A DNA stretch of 64,000 nucleotides from an uncultured Christensenellaceae bacterium (lineage in GTDB: Bacteria; Bacillota; Clostridia; Christensenellales; UBA3700): NCBI GenBank assembly GCA_944383895.1, contig CALWRH010000004.1, forward strand, positions 17,287-81,286, written 5' to 3'. Under the pieces are notes generated by a model that saw nothing but the letters and a program-made list of their open reading frames with translations, did not search any database and was not told where the DNA came from. Shown piece by piece: positions 45 through 15,280 of the stretch. Position numbers and translations under genes: made by a program. Each line of letters starts with the position of its first letter. Position 1 is the stretch's first letter.

Positions 45-1826
45 ATGAAAACCAAGACAGATAAAAAAGGAAAGCGCAATTTATTTGCGTATTTCGTTTC
101 GTATTACAAACCGCACAAAGTAACGTTCATGCTGGATATGCTGGCGTCGCTTATCTTTTCGCTATGCGGATTGTTTTATCCTATGCTTACGAGGCAGATG
201 CTCAACGATTTTATACCTAACGGCATGGTTAAAGAGATCGTGTTGTTCGGCATCGGGCTCGTCGGCATATATATCGTCCGTGCGTGCATGAATTTTTACA
301 TAAATTACTGCGGTCACGTCATGGGCGTAAAAATGCAGGCGGCGATGAGGAGCGATCTGTTCGATCATTTGCAGAAACTCCCGTATTCTTATTATGACAA
401 TCACGAAACGGGTCAGCTCATGGCGCGTATGACCAACGATCTTTTCAGCGTTTCGGAGCTTGCGCATCACGGCCCCGAAAATCTGTTCATATCGTCTTTC
501 ATGATAGTCGGGTCTTTTGTATATCTGTGTACGATCAATTGGCTCCTTGCGCTTATCGTGTTCGCGTTTCTTCCCGTTATAATCCTCGTTTCGATCAAGG
601 CTCAGAACGACATGAACAACGCGTTTACAAAAAGTCGCGAAGAAACGGGCAACATAAACGCCACGCTCGAGAACAGTATATCGGGTATACGCGTGACAAA
701 GGCGTATGCCAATGACGTATACGAACAGGATAAGTTTGAAAAGAACAACGACGCGTATGTGTTCTGGAGATCCAAGGCATACAAGGCGATGGGCAGATTT
801 TCTGCAAGCATGAGCTTTACGACGCAGGTCTGCAACGCGGTCGTACTTATTGCGGGCGGTCTGTTCTGTATCAAAGGAAAGATAGATTACGGCGACATCG
901 TCGCGTTCATGTTGTCGATCTCGCTGTTTATATCTCCCGTCGAAAATCTTCTGATGTTCTCCGAACAGTTGCAGGACGGCGTTACCGGATTCAAACGTTT
1001 CGTCGAGATCATGGACGCGAAAGCGGAAGAAGACAGCCCTGATGCAAAGGATATAGAAAGGCCTGCGGGACACGTCAGATTCGAAAACGTCGGTTTTTCT
1101 TATGACGGAAAAGCCGAGGTCCTCAAAGATATAAATATCGATATACCTGCGGGCAAGATATACGCTTTCGTAGGCGCGAGCGGCGGCGGCAAGACTACGC
1201 TCTGTCATCTGATCCCCAAGTTTTACAAGCTGGAAAAAGGCATGATATATATCGACGACATGCCGATAAGCGAAATTTCCAACAAGTCGCTGAGAAAGAA
1301 TATAGGTATCGTTCAGCAGGACGTGTTTCTCTTTACGGGCACGTTCAAGGAGAATATCGCATACGGCGAAACGGACGCGACAGACGAGGAGATAATTACC
1401 GCCGCAAAGAGAGCGAATATACACGACTATATCGCGGGTCTTTCCGACGGTTACGATACGCAGATAGGAGAGCGCGGCATAAAGCTTTCGGGCGGGCAGA
1501 AGCAAAGACTCAGTATAGCAAGAGTATTTCTCAAAAATCCGTCCATCCTGATACTCGACGAAGCTACGAGCGCGCTGGACAACGCTACCGAAGTCGCGGT
1601 GCAGAAGGCACTGTTCGATCTTTGCAAGGGAAGGACGACGCTTATCGTCGCGCACAGGCTGAGCACGATAAAAAACGCGGACGAAATAATCGTGGTCGAA
1701 GAGGGCAGGATAAAAGAACGCGGAACTCACAAAGAGCTGCTCGAAAAGGGCGGAGCTTACAAACAGCTTTACGAAGCGCAATATAAAGAATACGACGAGG
1801 GGGAAAGTCCTGATGAAAAAGCTTAA
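45..1826 (+). CDS. ABC transporter, fused permease/ATPase (MsbA-like exporter)
   Basis: 593-aa ORF. TM-rich N-half. Walker A GASGGGKTT, ABC signature LSGGQKQR, Walker B ILILDEATSALD. Confidence 0.9.
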   Translation: MKTKTDKKGKRNLFAYFVSYYKPHKVTFMLDMLASLIFSLCGLFYPMLTRQMLNDFIPNGMVKEIVLFGIGLVGIYIVRACMNFYINYCGHVMGVKMQAAMRSDLFDHLQKLPYSYYDNHETGQLMARMTNDLFSVSELAHHGPENLFISSFMIVGSFVYLCTINWLLALIVFAFLPVIILVSIKAQNDMNNAFTKSREETGNINATLENSISGIRVTKAYANDVYEQDKFEKNNDAYVFWRSKAYKAMGRFSASMSFTTQVCNAVVLIAGGLFCIKGKIDYGDIVAFMLSISLFISPVENLLMFSEQLQDGVTGFKRFVEIMDAKAEEDSPDAKDIERPAGHVRFENVGFSYDGKAEVLKDINIDIPAGKIYAFVGASGGGKTTLCHLIPKFYKLEKGMIYIDDMPISEISNKSLRKNIGIVQQDVFLFTGTFKENIAYGETDATDEEIITAAKRANIHDYIAGLSDGYDTQIGERGIKLSGGQKQRLSIARVFLKNPSILILDEATSALDNATEVAVQKALFDLCKGRTTLIVAHRLSTIKNADEIIVVEEGRIKERGTHKELLEKGGAYKQLYEAQYKEYDEGESPDEKA

Positions 1827-5426: not shown

Positions 5427-6045
5427 CGGGACGCTGCTCAATTCGCTCAAAGACCTTTGGGCGGCGGTGAACGGCGCGCTCTGGAGCGTGGGATTGCCTT
5501 GCCGCAGCGAAGAAGAAGTAAGACAGTTCGTCGGCGACGGAGTGGATATGCTGATAAGACGCGCGATAGGTGACGAACAGAATAAATTCGACGATTGCAA
5601 GGCAGCGTTCAAGAAACTCTATGACAAGGACATGCAGAACCAGACGAGGCCTTACGACGGGGTAAACAAGATGCTTGCCGATCTGAAGGCAAAAGGACTT
5701 GAGATCGCGGTATTGTCCAATAAATACGACAGCGCGGTGAAAGCGCTCTGCGATTATTATTTCAAAGATAAGATAAGTTATGCCGTAGGTCAAAAGGACG
5801 GCGTTAAGGTCAAGCCCGATCCCGCTGCGCTGAAAGAACTGCTTGAAAACGCCGGATATACTTCTGACGAGGCATTGTATTGCGGAGACGGAGAGGCGGA
5901 CGTACTTTGCGCGAAAGCGGCGGGGGTGGATTTTATCGCTGCGGCATGGGGGTTCAGACACTACAGCGTGCTTGAAAAGGCAGGCGCGAAAGTATTTGCG
6001 GGCATGCCTGCCGACGTCGCTGCGATAGTCGATACGTTTATGTGA
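5398..6045 (+). CDS. HAD-superfamily hydrolase (phosphoglycolate phosphatase-like)
   Basis: Motif I IIFDLDGTLLNS and motif IV GDGEADV. I prefer the ATG at 5398 (MKKIIIFDLDG) over the track's TTG at 5392. Confidence 0.8.
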   Translation: MKKIIIFDLDGTLLNSLKDLWAAVNGALWSVGLPCRSEEEVRQFVGDGVDMLIRRAIGDEQNKFDDCKAAFKKLYDKDMQNQTRPYDGVNKMLADLKAKGLEIAVLSNKYDSAVKALCDYYFKDKISYAVGQKDGVKVKPDPAALKELLENAGYTSDEALYCGDGEADVLCAKAAGVDFIAAAWGFRHYSVLEKAGAKVFAGMPADVAAIVDTFM

Positions 6046-6086
6046 AAAAGCCGCTCAAGGCGGTGAGATATAAGAGGAGAATTGTT

Positions 6087-8591
6087 ATGAAAAAAGCGAA
6101 ATACGGCAGCGGATTCAAGCTGTTCGACTACTACAAGACTGTAGCTCGCGTCGGCGGAGTTTTTTCCGCTTTATCGCTTTCTGCGATGATCTATGTTATC
6201 TATTACATGTTCTACAACTACATGTACGGAGAACTCAAAGAAGAGCTTACGACTAATTCGGCTCTCAAATATTCTTTGATAGCCGTCGGCATAGTACTTG
6301 CTATAATGGTCGTGGTGTTCGTTGCGTTGAAGATAGCGTCAAAAAGGACGAGCGCGCTCGACGTCGCTCTTATAGTCGTCGGAATCGCGGATATCGTGAT
6401 CATGGTCAAGAAGTTCTCGATCGACGCGAATATAAGAAACGCACAGGAAGTGCTCGTGTATGCGATACCGCTTGCATGCACTGTTATCGTGAGTATAGTC
6501 AGATGGATAGTTTTCTCTCCGAGAAACAACAAACTCATATCCACTCACGGAGAAAAGAGCAACAGCAATTTCAAAGATTATTACATATCCCTGTTCAAGA
6601 AACCTTCGACCTGGTTTATGATCGTCATGGCGCTCGTGATCGCGCTCATGTTTGTACTCGCGCAGGCTGAAGGCTGGCTCAACGTTTTCGATCTCAACGA
6701 ATATTCCAAAACCGAGATGATAAGAAACTGCGCCGTCATGGGCGGTATCGCAGGAGTTCTGTTTATCATCGGACTTGTTATAAGACTGTACAACAAGACG
6801 ATGAACTTTATGGACGCGTATTCCTTCGCGCTCGTTCCCGCAGGCATCGTAATGATCATAAGTTATATAATCGTGCAGCATACGGCTACGCTTATACTCG
6901 CGCTCGGTGCGATAGTGATTTCCTCAGCGTTGCAGATATTGTACGCTAAGACTTCTTATCTCACGGACAGCATAGTATGCGACGAAGAAGAAAAATTTGT
7001 AGAAGAACCCGAGAGCGAAAGCAAGGCTGAAGAACCTTGCTGCGTGGCTGAAGAAAGCAAAGGCGAGGTGTTCGGCGCAGTTGCGGCCGTCACCGAAGAA
7101 CACGAAGATTACGGCGCGACGCTCGAGGCCGTGCAGAAGACTCTCGACAGAATTTACAGACAGAACGAAGAACTCGAGGAAAGGCTGGCAAAAGCCGAAG
7201 TGGCGATAAGATCGCTCGAAGACAAAAACGCACAACTCGAAAAAGAAGTATCGGGACTGAGATCGTCCAACCGTTTCGTTTTGCTCGATATAGAAAAGCT
7301 CATGTCGAGGCTGTCTTATCTCGAAACCAAGACAGGCAAACCTCAGCCTGCGGTAGTCGTAAAAACCGATGCGGGCGAGAACGCGTTCGTGATGAGAGCG
7401 ATAGAGAATATCCTTTCCAGACTTACTTACGCAGAAAGCCTTGTCAGAGGAACTGACGAAGCTGTCGAGTATAGCACGGAGCCTTGCGAGGCAGCGGACG
7501 ATTATCCGTTTATAATGCTTACGCTTGAGAAACTGCTTTCGAGGCTGACCTATGCGGAAAGTCTGCTTGCAAAGGGCGTAACCGTTATTGAACAAGAGGA
7601 GGAGATCGGGGAGCAGCCTGAAGAAGAGGTTGCAGAAGAATCCGAAGAGCCCGAGGAGCAGCCCGAAGAAGTCTTGGAAGACGAAGAAACGGAAGAAGAC
7701 GAGGACGAAGAAAGTCAGGATGAAGAAAGCGCAGAACCTGCAGAAGAGGGCGAAATAACGTGGGAAGAGGTCGCGTCCAATAAACGCCGCGCTAAACCCA
7801 GATTCACCTTTGATATGAAACTGCGTATCGCAAGCGACGACGTGAAGAAGTTCTACAGCGATATCAAGAACGCTTTACTGTCTTACGGCATGCACGCAAG
7901 GATGTCGCGCCATAAAGAAAACTTCAACAAGGGAAGAAACAATATCGCGCGTATGGCGATAAACGGCAAGACGCTCAAAGTATATCTCGCGATAGATCCT
8001 AATGAGATCGATCCCAAGTATTATCACCACCGCGACGTCAGCGACAAGAAAGGTGTGGCGGAACTGCCCACGATGATCAACGTGCGCTCTAAAGTCGCTG
8101 TCAAAAAGGTAAAGATGCTTATCGACAGGATCGCGGAAGAGCTCGTTATCTTCCCCAAGAAATACACTCCGAAGGATTTTGCAGAAGATCTGACTCTTGA
8201 CGGATATTCTACGGTAGAGCGCAAAGGATACGGCTATCTCGTAAATAAAGACGGAGTGGCAAAGAAAGAAGACGTTGACGCTATCCCTGACGATTTTGCG
8301 ACAAATGCGGTCGAATATATATACGCACCGCAGAAGGCAAGCCGTTTCATAAAAGCGGAGCTGTCGCTGAAAGAGCTTGAAAGCAATTTCAAGGACGGCG
8401 ACGTCGTTGACATAGAAAAGGTCAGAGATAAAGGACTCTGCGCGGTAAACGCAAATTATCTGTCGGTTACTGACAGCAATACGCTCAAAAAGAAATTCCG
8501 CGTCTATGCAGACGAATACACCGTTGCAGCGGCAAAGATGATCTGCGTAGCGGGCGGAGAAGCTTATATGATTATTCAACCCGAAGCATAA
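6087..8591 (+). CDS. Polytopic membrane protein with coiled coil, triple SRL(S/T)Y motif, poly-acidic linker and uL15-like C-terminal domain
   Basis: ATG at 6087 is preceded by an AGGAG SD (the track start at 6042 is GTG). About 8-9 hydrophobic helices, then EE/heptad-rich segments. The last 79 aa align by eye to the ribosomal protein uL15 C-terminus. Confidence 0.85.
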   Translation: MKKAKYGSGFKLFDYYKTVARVGGVFSALSLSAMIYVIYYMFYNYMYGELKEELTTNSALKYSLIAVGIVLAIMVVVFVALKIASKRTSALDVALIVVGIADIVIMVKKFSIDANIRNAQEVLVYAIPLACTVIVSIVRWIVFSPRNNKLISTHGEKSNSNFKDYYISLFKKPSTWFMIVMALVIALMFVLAQAEGWLNVFDLNEYSKTEMIRNCAVMGGIAGVLFIIGLVIRLYNKTMNFMDAYSFALVPAGIVMIISYIIVQHTATLILALGAIVISSALQILYAKTSYLTDSIVCDEEEKFVEEPESESKAEEPCCVAEESKGEVFGAVAAVTEEHEDYGATLEAVQKTLDRIYRQNEELEERLAKAEVAIRSLEDKNAQLEKEVSGLRSSNRFVLLDIEKLMSRLSYLETKTGKPQPAVVVKTDAGENAFVMRAIENILSRLTYAESLVRGTDEAVEYSTEPCEAADDYPFIMLTLEKLLSRLTYAESLLAKGVTVIEQEEEIGEQPEEEVAEESEEPEEQPEEVLEDEETEEDEDEESQDEESAEPAEEGEITWEEVASNKRRAKPRFTFDMKLRIASDDVKKFYSDIKNALLSYGMHARMSRHKENFNKGRNNIARMAINGKTLKVYLAIDPNEIDPKYYHHRDVSDKKGVAELPTMINVRSKVAVKKVKMLIDRIAEELVIFPKKYTPKDFAEDLTLDGYSTVERKGYGYLVNKDGVAKKEDVDAIPDDFATNAVEYIYAPQKASRFIKAELSLKELESNFKDGDVVDIEKVRDKGLCAVNANYLSVTDSNTLKKKFRVYADEYTVAAAKMICVAGGEAYMIIQPEA

Positions 8592-8653
8592 CGGGATATA
8601 AGGGCCTGCCGTAAGACGGGTCCTTATGCCTTCAGCATAGGGCAGGAGGGAAA

Positions 8654-10222
8654 ATGGCTGACAAATTAAAATTGATACCTTACCCGTCAAAAGTCGAGTT
8701 CAAAGACGGCATTGCGGATTGCAGCTCCGTAAAGCTTTGCAACGACGCTGTCGTGAACGGCTTTGACGTGAAGGATTTTCTCGTAAAATACGGAGTTAAG
8801 ACGGAAGACGACGGACTTCCCGTTACGTTTGAACTAAGCGACGTTTCTGTAAAGGAGAAAGAGGGGTACAGACTCGATATCTGCAATGATAAAATCGGGA
8901 TAGAGGCATGCGCGCCTTGCGGACTTCTGTACGCTTTCGTAACGCTCGTGCAGCTGATAAACAACTATTCCGGCAGGATACCGTGTTGCCGTATAGATGA
9001 CGCTCCCGAGATATCTTACCGCGGTTTCATGCTCGATTCGGGCAGATATTTCTTTACGAAACAAGACGTTCTGAAGATAATAGATCTCTGTTTTCTCAAT
9101 AAGATAAACGTATTCCATTGGCATCTTACAGAAGATCAGGGGTGGCGTATCCAGATCGACAAATATCCGCTCCTTACCGAAAAGGGCAGCGTCAGATCGC
9201 ATACCAATTTCGGGTTCAGACCTCACGGCGGATATTATACAAAACAGGATGTAAAGGATATAATCGGGTATTGCCGTGCGAGAAATATCGAAGTGATACC
9301 CGAATTCGATATCCCCGGTCACTCTCAGGCGGCACTCGCGTGCTATCCGTGGCTGGGATGCTTTGACAGAAAGCTGGAAGTCGCCACGCACTCGGGCGTT
9401 AAACACGATATCCTGTGTGCGGGCAAGGAAAGCACCTACCGTTTCGTATTCGACGTGATAGACGAGATAGCTGAGATGTTCAAGGATTCACGCTATATCC
9501 ATCTCGGGGGCGACGAGGCGGTAAAGACGCGCTGGAAGATATGCCCTCACTGTCAGAAAAAGATGAAGGAACTCGGCATTGAAAAAGAAGACGCGTTGCA
9601 GGCTTACTTTATGGAAAGGGTCGCAGGTTACGTCGCGGACAAAGGTTTTACTCCGATAATGTGGAACGAAACCGATCTGTCCTTGCCCTGTCACGATAAG
9701 ATGGTATGGCAGCTCTGGACAACGGGAAACGGAGTCGTAAAGACAGAAGACATAGTATCTGCCGCATGCTCGAGAGGCGGTATAATAAACAGCGACAGTG
9801 CCTACGTTTATGTGGATCTGCCGTATGCTGATATAAATCTCGAAAAGAGTTATGCCTTCAAGCCCGTGCCCGAAGGAGCGGGAGATAAATTCATAGGCGC
9901 AGAGATCGCGCTGTGGAGCGAATACGTTCCCGATTTCGCAACCGCGTGCAGACGCATGCTTCCGAGGGCTTTGGCGATAGCGGAGGCAATGTGGGGCAAG
10001 CACGGAGAGGATTTTGACGGTTTCTGCAAAAGGCTTGACGCTACGCAAGAATTTTTAGAGAGGGCAGGTTATAAAGGCGTATCGGGAAAGACAGCCATGC
10101 CCGGCAAAGTCAGAGCTTTCTTTCAGAAGATGTGGTTCGAGCGCAGACAGTTGCATTGGCAGGGACTGCACAATCTTATAGACAACGCTGTCGTGAAAAT
10201 AAAATATTCGTCCGAGAGGTGA
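8654..10222 (+). CDS. Beta-N-acetylhexosaminidase (GH20)
   Basis: 522 aa. HWHLTEDQGWRIQI, IPEFDIPGHS, IHLGGDE. AGGAGGG SD. Confidence 0.9.
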   Translation: MADKLKLIPYPSKVEFKDGIADCSSVKLCNDAVVNGFDVKDFLVKYGVKTEDDGLPVTFELSDVSVKEKEGYRLDICNDKIGIEACAPCGLLYAFVTLVQLINNYSGRIPCCRIDDAPEISYRGFMLDSGRYFFTKQDVLKIIDLCFLNKINVFHWHLTEDQGWRIQIDKYPLLTEKGSVRSHTNFGFRPHGGYYTKQDVKDIIGYCRARNIEVIPEFDIPGHSQAALACYPWLGCFDRKLEVATHSGVKHDILCAGKESTYRFVFDVIDEIAEMFKDSRYIHLGGDEAVKTRWKICPHCQKKMKELGIEKEDALQAYFMERVAGYVADKGFTPIMWNETDLSLPCHDKMVWQLWTTGNGVVKTEDIVSAACSRGGIINSDSAYVYVDLPYADINLEKSYAFKPVPEGAGDKFIGAEIALWSEYVPDFATACRRMLPRALAIAEAMWGKHGEDFDGFCKRLDATQEFLERAGYKGVSGKTAMPGKVRAFFQKMWFERRQLHWQGLHNLIDNAVVKIKYSSER

Positions 10223-10225
10223 AAC

Positions 10226-11872
10226 ATGTTAGGTCAACCCATACTCAAATTCGCGTTCAGGTGCGGTGACGATATCCTGACTGCAAACGGCTCGAGAGAC
10301 GAGGTGGAATTTACTTGCGAGTATTCGGAAAAAGGTTACAAACTGTGGGTGCTCGCGCATAAAGACGTCACTCCGCTGATATGCGAGCTCAGATATTCTT
10401 ATCCGTATCCCGCAGGCGCAAAAGTGTTCGGCGGAGGTTTTCAGTCGTGGACGCATACGAGAGAATACGGAGAAAACGACGTCCAGAAAGGTCTGCGTCT
10501 GCCTGTGCGCTACGGGGCGGCGAGAAAATTCGCAGCGGCGTTCGGCGATTACGATTTTGCGAAATACAGTCGCAAAGCAGGGGATTGCCACTCTTTTTAT
10601 TACACCTACATAAGGGACGACAACGAATTTACTTTTGTCGGAAGTCTTGACGAAAGTCAGGGCTATACCGTGTTTTACCACAGCAGGGACAGAAAGGAAA
10701 TAAAGGTTGTGAAAGACCTCGAAGGTCTGACTCTGCGCGCGGGAGAGAGATACAAGCTTTACGATCTCTATTTTGACAAGGGTACTCAGGACGAAGTTTT
10801 CGACGCATATTTTTCTATGCTCGGTACAGATAAGCCGCGAGAGAAAAAGCTGTGCGGATATACGAGCTGGTACAATCTTTTCGGCAAAATAGACGAGGTC
10901 AGCATAATGAGAGATCTCGAGGGACTAAAAAAAGCCGACGTCGGAGCAACGATATTTCAGATAGACGACGGATATCAGGCGGCAGTAGGGGATTGGCTCG
11001 AAACAGACTCCGAAAAGTTTCCTTCGGGCATGAAAAAGCTGTGCGAAGAAATACATGCGCGCGGTTTCAAGGCAGGGCTCTGGCTTGCGCCTTATCTTTG
11101 CGCGAGGAACAGCCGCGTTGCTAAAGAACATCCCGACTGGCTCGTCAAAAATGACGGAAAACCCGTCATAGGCAACATCGGTTGGGGAGGCGCGTACGTG
11201 CTCGACTCTACCAACGGAGAAGTAAAGGAGTACCTCAAAAAAGTGTTCGATACCGTGCTCGGGGATTGGGGGTACGATATGGTAAAACTCGACTTCCTCT
11301 ATGCCGCGGCGATGTATCCCAAGTGCGGAAAAACAAGAGGAGAGCTCATGATTGACGCAATGAAGTTTTTGCGTGCCCGTGTAGGAAAAAAGTGGTTACT
11401 CGGTTGCGGTGTGCCGCTTTTCCCCGCGTTCGGGACGTGCGATTTCTGCAGAGTAGGCAGCGATGTGGATCTGAGTTTTAACGAGAGGGTATTCTCGAAA
11501 CTCACCAACAACGAAATAGTTTCGACATACAACGCGATCACTTCTTCTGTGTTCAGACATCATCTCAACGGCAGAGCTTTCACATGCGACCCCGACGTAT
11601 TTTTCTTGAGAAAAGACAATATAAAGTTCAGCGACGCGCAGAAGAAATTGCTTGCCAAAGTCAATTCTCTCGTAGGCGGAGTGCTTTTCGTTTCGGACAA
11701 CGCAGGCGATTACGGAGAGGAAGAAAAGCGCATCATGAAGGAGAGTTTTTCGCGTGATGCAACGGTAAAAGACGTGCGTTATTTGTCCAAAAACGTGATA
11801 CAGATAAGCTATACCGAGAAAGGAAAAGACGAAAAACTCTGTTTCAATATAAGAAACGGCAGGACAGTTTAG
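10226..11872 (+). CDS. Alpha-galactosidase-like glycoside hydrolase (GH36/clan GH-D type)
   Basis: 548 aa. FQIDDGYQ, GFKAGLWLAPY, YDMVKLDFLY. Starts 4 nt after the GH20 stop. Confidence 0.7.
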   Translation: MLGQPILKFAFRCGDDILTANGSRDEVEFTCEYSEKGYKLWVLAHKDVTPLICELRYSYPYPAGAKVFGGGFQSWTHTREYGENDVQKGLRLPVRYGAARKFAAAFGDYDFAKYSRKAGDCHSFYYTYIRDDNEFTFVGSLDESQGYTVFYHSRDRKEIKVVKDLEGLTLRAGERYKLYDLYFDKGTQDEVFDAYFSMLGTDKPREKKLCGYTSWYNLFGKIDEVSIMRDLEGLKKADVGATIFQIDDGYQAAVGDWLETDSEKFPSGMKKLCEEIHARGFKAGLWLAPYLCARNSRVAKEHPDWLVKNDGKPVIGNIGWGGAYVLDSTNGEVKEYLKKVFDTVLGDWGYDMVKLDFLYAAAMYPKCGKTRGELMIDAMKFLRARVGKKWLLGCGVPLFPAFGTCDFCRVGSDVDLSFNERVFSKLTNNEIVSTYNAITSSVFRHHLNGRAFTCDPDVFFLRKDNIKFSDAQKKLLAKVNSLVGGVLFVSDNAGDYGEEEKRIMKESFSRDATVKDVRYLSKNVIQISYTEKGKDEKLCFNIRNGRTV

Positions 11873-11979
11873 TGCTGAAACGGGCATAAATATACATTTC
11901 TGCCCGTTTATGTATTTTTTAATATTGAATATGCGATTATTTGCACGACGCGTCGTGCGTATGTTATTATAATGAAGAT

Positions 11980-14550
11980 ATGAAAGAAATAAGACTTCTT
12001 AAAAAACTCGAGCGTGCGCGCAACAAGAAAAAGCACGACAGTCATAAACTGAAAAACGCAGAAAAGTTTTTCCCGACCACAGATACGGGGCTTACTGCGG
12101 AACAGGTTGAGATACGCGTCAGAGACGGTCTTATAAACAAAAAGACCGACAATTCGAGCAAATCATACTTCAGAATAGTTTTCGAAAACATTTTCAATTT
12201 CTGCAATACGGTTACGATACTTCTCGTAATATTGTTGCTCGCGATAGGCGCATGGGATTATACGCTGTCATCGAGCATCATTTTCATCAACATAGCCATC
12301 GGTATAATTCAGGAAATAAAAGCCAAATGGACGGTGCAGAAACTGTCCCTTGTCGCTCAGTCCAAGTGCGACGTGGTTCGCGACGGCAAGCGCGTGAATA
12401 TCAACACAGCGGATCTCGTGCTCGAAGACGTATTCTATATACACGCGGGAGCGCAGGTCCCCGTCGACGCGGTAGTTCAGAGCGGTTACATAGAGGTCGA
12501 CGAATCTATCATAAGCGGAGAATCCCGTCCCGTGCGCAAAGAAGCGGGCGCAAATATCCTTGCAGGCAGCAACGTGCACGAGGGCGAGGCGTGTTGCATA
12601 GCGACGCGCGTAGGAAGGGACAGATATATCGAAGGCGTTTCCAAGGTAGCGAAACGCGTCAGCAAGCCCAAAAGCCGTATATTCTCGGTGCTCGATTCCC
12701 TTATCAAGGGCATAACCGTAGTGCTTGTGATACTTGCGGGATTTTTGCTTGCCGCTGACAGAATAACGGTCGGCGGAGCGTGGAAAGATACCGTGATCAC
12801 GGTTTCGAGCAGCGTGCTGGGCATGATACCTATAGGCATGTTCCTGCTGACTTCTACCGCGCTTGCGGCAAGCGTGCTCAAGCTTTCTAAAAAGCATGCG
12901 CTCGCACAGGATCTGTCGGGTATAGAAATGCTTGCGCTCACCGATACGCTGCTCCTCGACAAGACGGGCACTATCACGGACGGAAAGCTCGAACTCGTTG
13001 AAACCGTAAAGGTCGGGGATATAGAGAGCCCCGTAGACTTGCTCAATACGATAATGAGTGCGACACACGACAGCAAATCCACTGCGCTCGCTCTTTTGCA
13101 GGGAGTGGGAGAAGGCGAGATAATGCCGGTAAGCGACGTGATGAGTTTCAACAGCGCGCGCAAGTACAGTGCGGTTACGCTCGAAGGCGGCGCGACTTAC
13201 GTTCTCGGCGCGCCCGATTTCGTAGGAGTGCTCGAGGGCAAAGTCAAAGAGGCTGTCAGCAACAATTCCTCAAAGGGAAGAAGAAGTATTCTCTTATCGC
13301 GTTTTGACGGATCGATAGCTGATATTGACAAGACGAAGACGGTGCCGTGTTTCGTATTCGCGCTCGAGGACACGTTGCGCTCTAATATCCGTAAGACGCT
13401 CGACTGGTTTTACGAAAACGACGTAGACATAAAGATAATTTCGGGCGACGATCCCGTAACGGTTGCAAATATTGCAGGCAAGGCGGGGCTTAAGAATTGC
13501 GATCACAGCGTCAACTGCGCAGAGCTTGACGAAGAAAGTCTGAGAGCGGTCGCTGCTGATACGGCGGTATTCGGCAGAGTTTCGCCCGAGCAGAAGGCGA
13601 CGATCGTAAAACAACTTCAGAGCGAAGGCAGGACCGTAGGTATGATAGGCGACGGCGTCAACGACGTTCAGGCGCTCAAAGAGGCGGACTGCTCGATATC
13701 TTTCGCAAGCGCAAACGACGTGGCGAGAAATATTTCGAGAATTATCCTTATGGACAACGATTTCGCGTCCATGCCCGATATAGTCAAAGAGGGCAGACAG
13801 GTCATAGGCAATATAGAAAAGGTTTCCGCGCTGTACATTATGAAGAATATATTCGTAATGTTCATGACTTTGCTTTATGCGATAATCACAATAGTTACAA
13901 AAGTCAACAGCTATCCTTTCGATACCAAGAAAATGCTGATGATAGAGTTTTTCGTCATCGGCGTGCCGACCTTCCTGTTTGCGTTGCAACCGACGAAAGC
14001 GCGGCCTAAAGGCAATTTCCTTAGAAACGTGCTGAAATCTTCTCTGTCGGCTGCGGTAGGACTTATTGCGGCTACGGGATTTATAATGATAATGAACGCG
14101 GCGGTAATAGATTATTCTCCGATAGCGTCTACGCCCGAAGCGGTGGAGGCTGTCAAAGCGGTCATGGCTACTTTTGCGCTCACTATGGCGGGATTCGTGT
14201 GTCTGACTGTGATAAGCATGCCGCCCAATAAATTCAGACTTTCGGTCATTGCCGTTATGTTTGTCGTATCTCTGCTTGCAATATGGTTCGACAACAGGTT
14301 TATGGACGGGACTTTCCTCGGCATGAATTTCGTTCCTCTCGAATACGCGTGGTGGATAATAGTAAGTTCCGTTATCGCTCTTGTCGCAATGCTCGGTACG
14401 AAGTGGATAATAACTTATTTCGACAATAAGTACGGAGAAAAGATAGTCGAAGGCATGGACGAAAAAATACGCGACTTCAAACGCAAGAGGATAGAGAAAT
14501 ACAACAAAAGACAAGAGGAGAAAGAAGAGAAGGGTGGACAAAAAGAATAA
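11980..14550 (+). CDS. Cation-translocating P-type ATPase
   Basis: SGES, phosphorylation site DKTGTITDG, hinge GDGVNDVQALKEAD, about 10 TM segments. The ATG at 11980 (MKEIRLL) is preferred to the track's TTG at 11941. Confidence 0.9.
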   Translation: MKEIRLLKKLERARNKKKHDSHKLKNAEKFFPTTDTGLTAEQVEIRVRDGLINKKTDNSSKSYFRIVFENIFNFCNTVTILLVILLLAIGAWDYTLSSSIIFINIAIGIIQEIKAKWTVQKLSLVAQSKCDVVRDGKRVNINTADLVLEDVFYIHAGAQVPVDAVVQSGYIEVDESIISGESRPVRKEAGANILAGSNVHEGEACCIATRVGRDRYIEGVSKVAKRVSKPKSRIFSVLDSLIKGITVVLVILAGFLLAADRITVGGAWKDTVITVSSSVLGMIPIGMFLLTSTALAASVLKLSKKHALAQDLSGIEMLALTDTLLLDKTGTITDGKLELVETVKVGDIESPVDLLNTIMSATHDSKSTALALLQGVGEGEIMPVSDVMSFNSARKYSAVTLEGGATYVLGAPDFVGVLEGKVKEAVSNNSSKGRRSILLSRFDGSIADIDKTKTVPCFVFALEDTLRSNIRKTLDWFYENDVDIKIISGDDPVTVANIAGKAGLKNCDHSVNCAELDEESLRAVAADTAVFGRVSPEQKATIVKQLQSEGRTVGMIGDGVNDVQALKEADCSISFASANDVARNISRIILMDNDFASMPDIVKEGRQVIGNIEKVSALYIMKNIFVMFMTLLYAIITIVTKVNSYPFDTKKMLMIEFFVIGVPTFLFALQPTKARPKGNFLRNVLKSSLSAAVGLIAATGFIMIMNAAVIDYSPIASTPEAVEAVKAVMATFALTMAGFVCLTVISMPPNKFRLSVIAVMFVVSLLAIWFDNRFMDGTFLGMNFVPLEYAWWIIVSSVIALVAMLGTKWIITYFDNKYGEKIVEGMDEKIRDFKRKRIEKYNKRQEEKEEKGGQKE

Positions 14551-15280
14551 TCCTCACGTAAATCACAGAGAAAGGATGCGTACGAGAGTAGCGGAAAATT
14601 CTCTCGATTCGCTGAACGAGCACGAGGTGCTCGAATATCTTTTGTATCCGTTTATTCCGCGCAAGGACACCAACGGCATAGCTCACGATCTTATATCGAA
14701 GTTCGGTTCGCTTGCCGCCGTGCTCGACAGCGATCCTGTCGCGCTTTCCGCGGTAAAAGGCATGACTAAAAACGCGTCTTTGTATCTCAGCAGCATGTCG
14801 TCGCTTGCAAGGCGTTATTATTCGAGCAAAATGCTGCAAAAGCCTAAAATGGAAACGCGCGGGCAGATACTCGATTATCTGAAAAGCTTTATGAGCACGC
14901 TCGAAGAAGAGCGTATTTACGCGATATGCGTAGACAGTGCGGGAAGGCTGAAAGAGCGTTGCGAGCTCGGCAAGGGTACGAGCGACGATTGCAAACTGCG
15001 CGTCAGAGAGCTCATCATGTTGTGTCAGAATTCTCAGACGAAATACGTTTATCTCGCTCACAATCATCCGTCAGGCATCGCCAAACCGTCAGTCGAAGAT
15101 ATAGAATTTACCAAGTGGGCGGTTACGGCATGCGAAATGATGGACGTGCTTCTGATAGACCATATAATAATCGCAAAAGACGGACATTACAGCTTTCAGC
15201 AGGACGGGAAACTCGACGAATTCAGGAAGTCCTATCTGAAATTCGTCGACGAGGGCAGGATTTCCGACAGGAGGAATTGA
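14534..15280 (+). CDS. RadC-like JAB/MPN domain protein
   Basis: N-terminal HRERMRTR...EVLEYLL helix-hairpin-helix-like region and the HNHPSG JAB motif. GTG start overlaps the ATPase gene end. Confidence 0.8.
   Translation: MDKKNNPHVNHRERMRTRVAENSLDSLNEHEVLEYLLYPFIPRKDTNGIAHDLISKFGSLAAVLDSDPVALSAVKGMTKNASLYLSSMSSLARRYYSSKMLQKPKMETRGQILDYLKSFMSTLEEERIYAICVDSAGRLKERCELGKGTSDDCKLRVRELIMLCQNSQTKYVYLAHNHPSGIAKPSVEDIEFTKWAVTACEMMDVLLIDHIIIAKDGHYSFQQDGKLDEFRKSYLKFVDEGRISDRRN

Follow-up and report, generated by a model that had tools for sequence, protein, structure and literature searches.

The C-terminal part of an 834-aa membrane protein of a gut Christensenellales bacterium, encoded in the window (the whole 64,000-nt stretch of DNA analysed here), is a two-domain module, X-Y, which recurs in thousands of previously undescribed membrane proteins and giant surface proteins of Firmicutes. 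Domain X is strongly basic, and domain Y, which ends the chain, is truly homologous to the globular domain of ribosomal protein uL15. The initial annotation had regarded a ribosomal-protein-like module on a membrane protein as an unusual occurrence. The module proved real and conserved, but it is not a one-off fusion, since X and Y together define a family that keeps to a stereotyped layout and comprises approximately 4,100 clusters at 50% identity. This family is not covered by Pfam or NCBIfam, and literature searches on PF00828, PDC-S18, uL15-like and DUF5655 topics returned no description of the architecture. The features of the window protein are collected in Table 1.

Table 1. Features of the X-Y protein gene and its product, in window coordinates
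Feature	Position (nt)	Strand	Basis
Shine-Dalgarno site AAGAGGAG	6072-6079	+	7 nt upstream of ATG 6087; read from sequence
Complete ORF, 834 aa plus stop codon	6087-8591	+	stop-free translation
Polytopic membrane domain, 8 predicted TM helices (aa 24-279)	6156-6923	+	hydropathy scan
Probable coiled-coil segment (aa ~346-393)	7122-7265	+	weak Pfam matches; heptad-like sequence
Three copies of F[VI][LM]xxxExxxSRL[ST]Y[LA]E (aa 397-413, 434-450, 475-491)	7275-7559	+	regex scan
Acidic linker core (aa 503-557)	7593-7757	+	33/55 Asp/Glu = 60%
Domain X (aa ~568-698), basic (+10), alpha-beta4-beta-alpha sandwich	7788-8180	+	HMM, model, Foldseek
Acidic helical connector X-Y (aa 699-755)	8181-8351	+	model secondary structure
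Domain Y (aa 756-834), uL15 C-terminal globular homologue	8352-8588	+	PF00828, PDB profile search, Foldseek

The single protein proposed in the initial annotation is encoded by one intact ORF with a good Shine-Dalgarno site and a conserved start, as orthologues begin with the same residues (MKKAKYGSGF). Full-length orthologues of 824 to 831 aa were found at L004 and at L006 to L012, and L005 has this gene too, there listed with 880 aa counted from an upstream ATG. In approximately 17 Christensenellales genomes the complete fusion is uninterrupted and lies in conserved synteny. The search for related loci used an alignment of closer homologues and reaches Christensenellales-like relatives only. 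An Rfam scan of the whole window returned no RNA family, and a promoter scan gave a count of promoter-like sites not above chance. Terminator-like sites were more numerous than expected (12, against 4.0 ± 2.2 in shuffles); most of them lie inside coding sequences, chiefly on the minus strand, and the gene end has none.

The identity of Y was established using sequence profiles, a search of PDB sequences and predicted structure. Pfam model PF00828 (Ribosomal_L27A) matched aa 759-826 over positions 2-71 of 72 (E=9.5e-6, 26.4 bits against a gathering score of 21.5); the tail alone scored 28.4 to 28.7 bits, and 14 of the 21 family members matched the same model, the best at E=1.6e-14. The NCBIfam model rplO_bact (TIGR01071) matched aa 757-825 over positions 74-142 of 144 (E=1.2e-3), with a score of 18.6 bits that falls short of its curated cutoff for full-length proteins, 77.95 bits. 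A family profile run against PDB sequences retrieved uL15 chains (E=4e-4) and no other significant match. Foldseek, which had been proposed at the outset and was run on AlphaFold models, gave the same answer against the PDB: all 50 of the 50 listed matches to the first model were uL15-family chains (uL15/L18e/L27a), as were the top 20 for the second. In the best cases the RMSD was 1.8 to 2.8 Å over approximately 70 to 76 residues, reaching 1.8 Å over 69 to 72 columns. The model has a pLDDT of 91.9, with values above 90 within Y, and Y adopts the uL15 globular fold. The likeness of the last 79 residues to uL15, seen by eye beforehand, was thus borne out by the very searches that could have found no significant relation.

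Approximately 75 residues of Y share the profile and alpha/beta fold of uL15 (RplO; PF00828, TIGR01071), the similarity covering the pattern ...L..KK..V.A......A...I...GG.A. In contrast to uL15, Y is the tail of an 834-aa membrane protein and has no counterpart of the Gly/Arg-rich N-terminal extension (profile positions ~1-73); the residues that precede Y form the acidic helical connector, with a mean charge of -6 across the family. The uL15 extension threads into, and is buried in, 23S rRNA. Nor is the gene located in the spc operon, its neighbours encoding a HAD hydrolase and a GH20 hexosaminidase. As it lacks the N-terminal half of uL15 and is encoded outside a ribosomal-protein operon, the window protein is in all probability not a functional ribosomal protein, and Y would be a recruited fold. 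The positions common to Y and uL15 in the PDB-profile alignment are mostly core hydrophobic residues and glycines, so that a conserved fold does not by itself mean that rRNA binding has been kept. Y is also close to neutral in net charge (-1 in the window protein, +0.8 on average in the family).

What had been described as a single C-terminal domain is indeed a conserved region, but it consists of two domains and a connector, and X had been overlooked. The window copy of X matched a local HMM at 158 bits, and its AlphaFold model has a pLDDT above 90, with helices at 5-19 and 90-106 enclosing strands at 24-28, 31-36, 39-47, 50-55 and 83-87. The basic charge is a family-wide property, averaging +8.5 over approximately 117 aa in 331 copies. 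Foldseek matched the model to the DNA-binding domain of T4 MotA in the PDB (1kaf_A, E=5.8e-3, a single weak match) and to a phage DUF5655 protein in BFVD (E=4.4e-4). The Foldseek output did not include aligned ranges, and both matches were assigned to X from their aligned lengths. In relatives, the X copy of P0053 matched Pfam DUF5655 (62.8 bits against a cutoff of 24, E=3.6e-17), and that of P0042 approached DUF1801 (23.8 bits against a cutoff of 27.2, E=6e-5). The window's own X had no Pfam match even at E<=1, a Pfam scan of 35 X domains at E<=1 gave scattered single matches at chance level, and an X-only profile retrieved nothing from PDB sequences. A further match was to the PADLOC candidate PDC-S18, at aa 551-694 of the window protein (E=2.2e-9) and down to 3.5e-25 in relatives. 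Only positions 196-331 of 365 and 187-299 of 302 of the PDC-S18 models were matched, and the window protein has no counterpart of the first two thirds of the model.

X shares with DUF5655 and DUF1801 (YdhG-like) and with the C-terminal domain (CTD) of T4 MotA a sandwich of helix, antiparallel sheet and helix. It differs from the two Pfam families in forming a large, strongly basic family of its own that is often tandemly repeated, and the window copy falls below detection for both models. We know of no established function for DUF5655 or DUF1801. Our putative assignment of X is a YdhG/DUF5655/MotA-CTD-like nucleic-acid binder. The sandwich is a common fold that also occurs in frataxin and YdhG, neither of them a binder of nucleic acids (PMC10855754).

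The family has a characteristic architecture: a membrane anchor, an acidic linker, one to three copies of X, and Y at the very end of the chain, approximately 4 residues from the C-terminus. Anchors range from domains of 8 to 12 TM helices to giant surface proteins of 2-6 kaa. Y is almost always preceded by at least one copy of X, which is the more widespread and more repeated element. Y is also tied to membrane anchoring, as 78 of 103 TM-anchored proteins have it, against 5 of the 38 that are soluble (Fisher p=1.4e-11). The soluble relatives consist of 3-7 tandem X copies fused to DUF2357 (the McrC N-domain), mostly without Y, and all seven DUF2357-carrying relatives that were scanned lack it. 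In the giant relatives a signal peptide is followed by ectodomains (Big_3, Flg_new, beta-helix), one TM helix with a KK/RR stop-transfer signal and then the tail. Pfam matches to HC2 and Extensin in these giants were rejected; they come from acidic low-complexity linkers of the PEEPAV type and not from histone-like basic regions. Family hosts include Christensenellales, other Clostridia and Acholeplasmatales-like Bacilli. The window protein has X in common with the McrC-like proteins, where 3-7 copies stand in tandem, and with PDC-S18, where X corresponds to the C-terminal part of the model. Unlike McrC, the window protein has a membrane anchor and Y and lacks DUF2357, a nuclease and an McrB neighbour; no Pfam match to DUF2357 or PD-(D/E)xK was found in it or in its neighbours. 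Type IV restriction (McrC) systems are known to carry extra fused domains, including modified-base-binding modules of the EVE superfamily (PMC11090510).

A Kyte-Doolittle scan gave eight hydrophobic segments in the membrane domain, within the eight to nine expected from the initial reading. The domain had no Pfam family match and seems to consist of 4-TM units in tandem; a jackhmmer search connected it with the N-domains of 11-12 TM helices in other X-Y proteins. Lys and Arg residues number 16 on the even-numbered loops and 7 on the odd-numbered ones. This positive-inside count and the even number of TM helices fit a predicted topology with both termini inside. Together with the layout of the giant relatives, the same evidence places the module, by prediction, in the cytoplasm. 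NCBIfam matches to TraP, AmaP and LrgA were sub-threshold, reflected hydrophobic or coiled-coil composition and were rejected.

The stretch from the last TM helix to X has a net charge of -51. Its coiled-coil segment, noted initially from the sequence, gave weak, sub-threshold Pfam matches to Tropomyosin, DivIC, FlaC and bZIP, which are consistent with a probable coiled coil but are no proof of one. The repeated motif that follows is kept in the closest orthologues only. The acidic run of approximately 55 aa is present as first described, although "almost pure Glu/Asp" overstated its composition (Table 1). An acidic linker is general in the family, being net acidic in 94% of 104 TM-anchored members.

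The gene lies in a housekeeping neighbourhood (Fe-ADH, TPK, HAD, GH20, P-type ATPase) conserved across several genera. The distribution and neighbourhood of homologues, which the initial annotation had recommended examining, revealed a large family with lineage-specific synteny, and no conserved neighbour beyond that synteny or pointing to a pathway. A tblastn search of the module against phage and plasmid records gave no match, and PHROGs had nothing for it. The conserved synteny and the lack of phage or plasmid matches indicate that the gene is vertically inherited. In species whose module is 73-77% identical, identity amounts to 27-31% in the membrane domain and to approximately 50% in the adjacent HAD and TPK genes, from which we conclude that the module is under purifying selection.

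The reading that we favour, if tentatively, is that the membrane-tethered X-Y protein is a cytoplasmic binder of nucleic acids or ribosomes. X looks like a nucleic-acid-binding domain because of its strong basic charge, its likeness to DUF5655, DUF1801 and MotA, its McrC-like fusion and its PDC-S18 match. Domain identities, topology, the architecture of the family and purifying selection on the module are results of the analysis, whereas nucleic-acid binding and tethering are inferred from them. The protein is an inner-membrane protein with eight predicted TM helices and both termini in the cytoplasm, where the long acidic, partly coiled-coil stalk holds the module, a basic YdhG/DUF5655-like X followed by a duplicated uL15 globular domain. 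X-Y would bind a large polyanionic ligand, either DNA or rRNA and ribosomal particles, and the protein would keep this ligand at the membrane. The acidic linker may keep the basic module off anionic lipids, or may mask it until the ligand arrives, and Y would act jointly with X, specifically in those family members that are tethered to the membrane. Tethering of ribosomes or RNA, which had been suggested from the start, is compatible with a cytoplasmic topology and a basic X; reuse of the fold is just as plausible a reading.

Several observations were counted against a nucleic-acid binder. For X these are its generic sandwich, the single weak MotA match and the lack of Pfam or PDB sequence matches for the window copy; for Y, its near-neutral charge and its mostly core positions shared with uL15; and for the gene, the absence of a pathway-indicating neighbour.

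Among the alternatives, the one that deserves most weight, while still unlikely, is that X and Y, as reused folds, serve to oligomerise or to bind a cytoplasmic protein, for example a cytoskeletal or divisome component, with no part for nucleic acid, so that X-Y organises or immobilises membrane and surface proteins. The same tail on unrelated anchors, including giant surface proteins, fits such a generic localisation or anchoring module, as do the near-neutral Y, the generic fold of X, and the coiled coil and repeated motifs of the stalk. However, what X shows would be more typical of a polyanion binder: a strong positive charge throughout the family, fusion to McrC-like restriction proteins and an acidic linker alongside.

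We consider it improbable that the protein is a ribosome-specific tether or uL15 mimic, in which Y would dock on the 50S subunit, on an intermediate lacking uL15 or on a component that neighbours uL15, while X grips rRNA and ribosomes or pre-50S particles are held or sequestered at the membrane. Y is derived from uL15 and closest to bacterial uL15, certain members of the family have stayed very close to uL15 (E=3e-14 and 1.6e-14), Y goes with membrane anchoring, and the module faces the cytoplasm, where ribosomes are. One paralogue family also lies directly after rpsL-rpsG-fusA-tuf, but this is a single case, and the window gene and most relatives are away from translation genes. The extension by which uL15 is anchored in 23S rRNA is missing, only positions 74-142 of 144 being matched, and the residues in common are mostly core. 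Proteins with a membrane anchor and a charged cytoplasmic region have been proposed as ribosome holders elsewhere, namely YqjD, ElaB and YgaM in E. coli and p180/RRBP1 at the eukaryotic ER. Their general layout may be likened to that of the window protein, but they have no sequence or domain relation to it and contain neither uL15-like nor YdhG-like domains.

A defence sensor, in which X would detect the DNA or RNA of an invader at the membrane, with the polytopic domain as effector, as in abortive infection with TM effectors, is very doubtful. X is common to PDC-S18 and to the McrC-like DUF2357 proteins, but only the C-terminal part of the PDC-S18 models (positions ~190-330) is matched, the conserved housekeeping neighbourhood across several genera speaks for vertical inheritance, phage, plasmid and PHROG matches are absent, and giant adhesin-like relatives are ill-suited to the role of a defence effector. 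Next to impossible is an artefactual fusion of separate membrane and uL15-like genes by frameshift or assembly error: gene calls at L002 and L003 cover the last 258 aa only and L001 has a stop codon just ahead of the module, but the former reflect an N-gap in the acidic-linker DNA with both flanks in frame with the two halves, the latter is one AAA-to-TAA change 58 nt from a contig end, and the 8-TM and module ORF, which the initial annotation feared might be split in other assemblies, is intact in approximately 28 independent genomes, including the complete HiFi chromosome L014.

To our knowledge, it is uncommon for a domain of a ribosomal protein to be duplicated and taken up by other proteins. 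In the present family, recruitment of the uL15 globular domain extends to thousands of clusters of membrane proteins, among them surface proteins of 2-6 kaa. That the module represents a previously undescribed system of membrane-ribosome or membrane-nucleoid coupling in many uncultured Firmicutes is a quite improbable proposition. If it were true, Y, X and the acidic stalk would physically connect ribosomal particles or rRNA with polytopic membrane proteins and with the cytoplasmic tails of giant surface proteins, and the system would be the bacterial equivalent of the ribosome receptors of the ER. Binding of ribosomes, rRNA or DNA would mean that gut Firmicutes widely couple their envelope to the translation machinery or the chromosome. 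Even as a scaffold, X and X-Y constitute a large family outside Pfam and NCBIfam, with McrC-type links, that merits family definition and biochemistry.

The C-terminal ~79 residues of the window protein (domain Y), which the initial annotation had aligned by eye with the end of ribosomal protein uL15, are truly homologous to it. PF00828, the uL15/L18e/L27a globular domain, matched aa 759-826 over profile positions 2-71 of 72 with 26.4 bits, above its gathering score of 21.5 bits, and NCBIfam rplO_bact was matched in its C-terminal half only (positions 74-142 of 144). Apart from uL15 chains, the best at E=4e-4, a family profile run against all PDB sequences retrieved no noteworthy match. In two AlphaFold models Y was predicted at pLDDT >90; Foldseek searches of PDB gave uL15-family proteins for 50 of 50 among the matches listed for the first model and for the top 20 of the second, the best superpositions reaching an RMSD of 1.8 A over 69-72 columns. 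PF00828 was also matched by 14 of 21 relatives (best E=1.6e-14), and one relative of 2,828 aa scored E=3.2e-14. On profile evidence the protein thus carries a bona fide PF00828 domain. It lies outside the uL15 ribosomal protein family, since its score is under the NCBIfam cutoff, the N-terminal extension is missing and the gene is not part of a ribosomal operon.

The homologue alignment extended the conserved C-terminal region to ~270 residues, compared with the 79 noted initially, and divided it into a domain X, a connector and Y. X of the window protein had no match in Pfam, NCBIfam, PHROG or PDB sequences. The AlphaFold model built from the more diverse alignment (mean pLDDT 91.9) predicts X as a sandwich of helix, four- to five-stranded antiparallel sheet and helix. 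Beyond the uL15 family, Foldseek matched the T4 MotA DNA-binding domain in PDB (1kaf_A, E=5.8e-3). Its matches in viral models were to an unnamed protein of 215 aa (E=3.9e-5) and to a DUF5655 protein (E=4.4e-4). In sequence comparisons, the summed X copies of one relative (P0053) matched DUF5655 at E=3.6e-17 and a single copy of another (P0042) matched DUF1801 at E=6e-5. Because of these DUF5655 and DUF1801 matches, X is best placed in or beside the YdhG-like (DUF1801/DUF5655) superfamily. The YdhG-like fold also resembles frataxin (PMC10855754), and the fold of X therefore does not by itself fix a function. X is strongly basic (mean charge +8.5 over 331 copies, +10 in the window protein), the connector is acidic (mean -6) and Y is near neutral.

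Features of the target gene, its product and its neighbourhood
Feature	Residues	Window position	Strand	Basis or content
Genes 5' of target				ABC exporter, 2-hydroxyacid dehydrogenase, 4HBT thioesterase, Fe-ADH, thiamin pyrophosphokinase (TPK), HAD hydrolase
Target ORF	834 codons	6087-8591	+	single uninterrupted reading frame
Membrane domain, 8 TM segments	24-279	6156-6923	+	hydropathy scan
Putative coiled coil	~346-393		+	weak Tropomyosin, DivIC, FlaC, bZIP matches
~17-aa motif F[VI][LM]xxxExxxSRL[ST]Y[LA]E, three copies	397-491	7275-7559	+	spacing ~37-41 aa, cytoplasmic stalk
Acidic run	503-557		+	Asp/Glu 33/55 = 60%
Domain X	~568-698		+	conserved in homologue alignment
Acidic helical connector, X to Y	699-755		+	homologue alignment
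Domain Y, uL15-like	last ~79		+	homologue alignment
Genes 3' of target		8654-15277		GH20 hexosaminidase, GH31/melibiase-like glycosidase, P-type ATPase, RadC-like JAB protein

At the 5' end of the gene, AAGAGGAG lies 7 nt upstream of the ATG at 6087, and orthologues share the N-terminus MKKAKYGSGF. The membrane helices first read from the sequence were recovered by the hydropathy scan, and the run described as almost pure Glu/Asp is very acidic, though not almost pure. Lys and Arg are biased to the N-terminus and even-numbered loops (16 versus 7), which together with eight TM helices predicts a cytoplasmic tail. The segment at aa ~346-393 is compatible with a coiled coil. The stalk motif, kept in the closest orthologues only (L004-L012, P0016, P0019), may be an amphipathic helix repeat. 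Long ORFs of 180-271 aa also overlap the gene on the minus strand (6339-6881, 6924-7595 and 7875-8690); most likely they do not encode proteins and are a side effect of the gene's codon composition.

The initial annotation had asked if the ORF is split in other assemblies. In two metagenome contigs (L002, L003) the called gene comprises only the last 258 aa, and in a third (L001) a stop codon directly precedes the module. Both former contigs carry an N-run in the acidic-linker DNA (~5780-5880) with the two halves in frame on its flanks, and the L001 stop (7690-7692) stems from one AAA-to-TAA difference, 58 nt away from where the contig ends. In these assemblies broken at the linker, gene callers report fragments of 563 aa and 258 aa, and a spurious 312-aa antisense ORF is called over the membrane domain. 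When one genome per species was scanned, 40 loci were obtained. Nearly all belong to MAGs of Christensenellaceae, Christensenellales or unclassified Clostridia, 'Candidatus Ornithoclostridium' among them. In ~28 of the 40, among them a complete HiFi chromosome (L014), the module is in an intact ORF of 715-893 aa with a 7-8 TM N-domain, which excludes an artefactual fusion. Most of the neighbourhood, in the tabulated order from 2-hydroxyacid dehydrogenase to RadC, is kept in about 17 of these genomes. The gene is thus a real one, carried on the chromosome and passed on vertically. The context is one of ordinary housekeeping and glycan use with no obvious tie to the target.

In species whose X-Y module is 73-77% identical to that of the window, identity is 27-31% for the membrane domain, about 50% for the HAD and TPK neighbours and about 73% for Fe-ADH. 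Within the protein, constraint is therefore strongest on the tail, on par with a central metabolic enzyme.

Searched exhaustively with a profile, 1.84 billion cluster representatives yielded 4,105 proteins at E<=1e-3, including 3,058 at E<=1e-10. Local re-analysis of the best 150 of the 4,105 showed 1-7 tandem copies of X and a nearly always single Y, ending at a median of ~4 residues before the C-terminus. Anchors comprise 8-TM domains, 11-12-TM domains, single N-terminal TM helices and giants of 1.6-6.4 kaa. No Pfam family covers the 8-TM domain. Jackhmmer, with scores that may be inflated by hydrophobic composition, found it homologous to the 11-12-TM N-domains of P0065, P0066, P0072, P0097, L039 and L040, and overlapping matches suggest that both types are built of tandem 4-TM units. 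The giants start with a classical signal peptide, followed by domains of extracellular type (Big_3, Listeria-Bacteroides repeat, beta-helix); after a single TM helix and its Lys/Arg stop-transfer, a PEEPAV-like acidic linker leads to X-X-Y. X-Y is predicted to be cytoplasmic in every architecture. Of 104 anchored members, 94% carry a net negative charge between the last TM and the first X (median -21.5; window protein -51). Presence of Y is linked to membrane anchoring (78 of 103 TM-anchored versus 5 of 38 soluble proteins; Fisher p=1.4e-11). Soluble members, mostly without Y, have 3-7 X copies and often DUF2357, which in Type IV restriction systems forms the N-terminal domain of McrC and its contact with McrB (PMC11090510). 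The DUF2357-X proteins (P0028, P0030, P0036, P0038, P0043, P0047 and P0058; ~1,100-1,600 aa) resemble McrC-like restriction components equipped with an undescribed array of specificity domains. A further match of X is to PDC-S18, a defence candidate in PADLOC, over its C-terminal part.

The window protein is a polytopic membrane protein whose long acidic, partly coiled-coil cytoplasmic stalk bears a basic YdhG-like domain and a uL15-derived domain at its tip, and this layout is ancient and selected. Our tentative reading is that X-Y would bind a large polyanionic ligand in the cytoplasm and tether it to the membrane, with the acidic linker spacing or masking the basic module. The ligand would most plausibly be nucleic acid, because X is basic, is similar to a DNA-binding domain from a phage and recurs as tandem arrays in McrC-like restriction proteins. 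That the module is purely a protein scaffold or localisation device seems rather unlikely. The ribosome-specific version, in which Y would act as a uL15 mimic on 50S or pre-50S particles, is attractive, but we consider it improbable. One family of single-TM X-Y paralogues (P0193; 463 aa, L044-L046) does lie directly 3' of rpsL-rpsG-fusA-tuf and 5' of homoserine dehydrogenase, the sole translation-related neighbourhood seen, but Y lacks the N-terminal half with which uL15 penetrates rRNA, and the positions in common with uL15 are mostly core residues. A defence sensor, as the McrC and PDC-S18 links might suggest, is very unlikely given the housekeeping synteny and the lack of phage or plasmid matches.

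Since X is the only domain common to them, the window protein is neither McrC nor PDC-S18. In function, its nearest analogues would be ribosome binders anchored in a membrane, namely E. coli YqjD/ElaB/YgaM and eukaryotic p180; these are not known to share a domain with it. Our literature search found no paper on this X-Y membrane-protein architecture. Both ingredients, a recruited domain of a ribosomal protein and a membrane-tethered YdhG-like domain, are of kinds already known. The uL15-like fusion is real and more general than first noted; within Christensenellales, the window protein represents a very large family, so far unannotated, whose defining trait is a cytoplasmic X and uL15-like module on membrane anchors.
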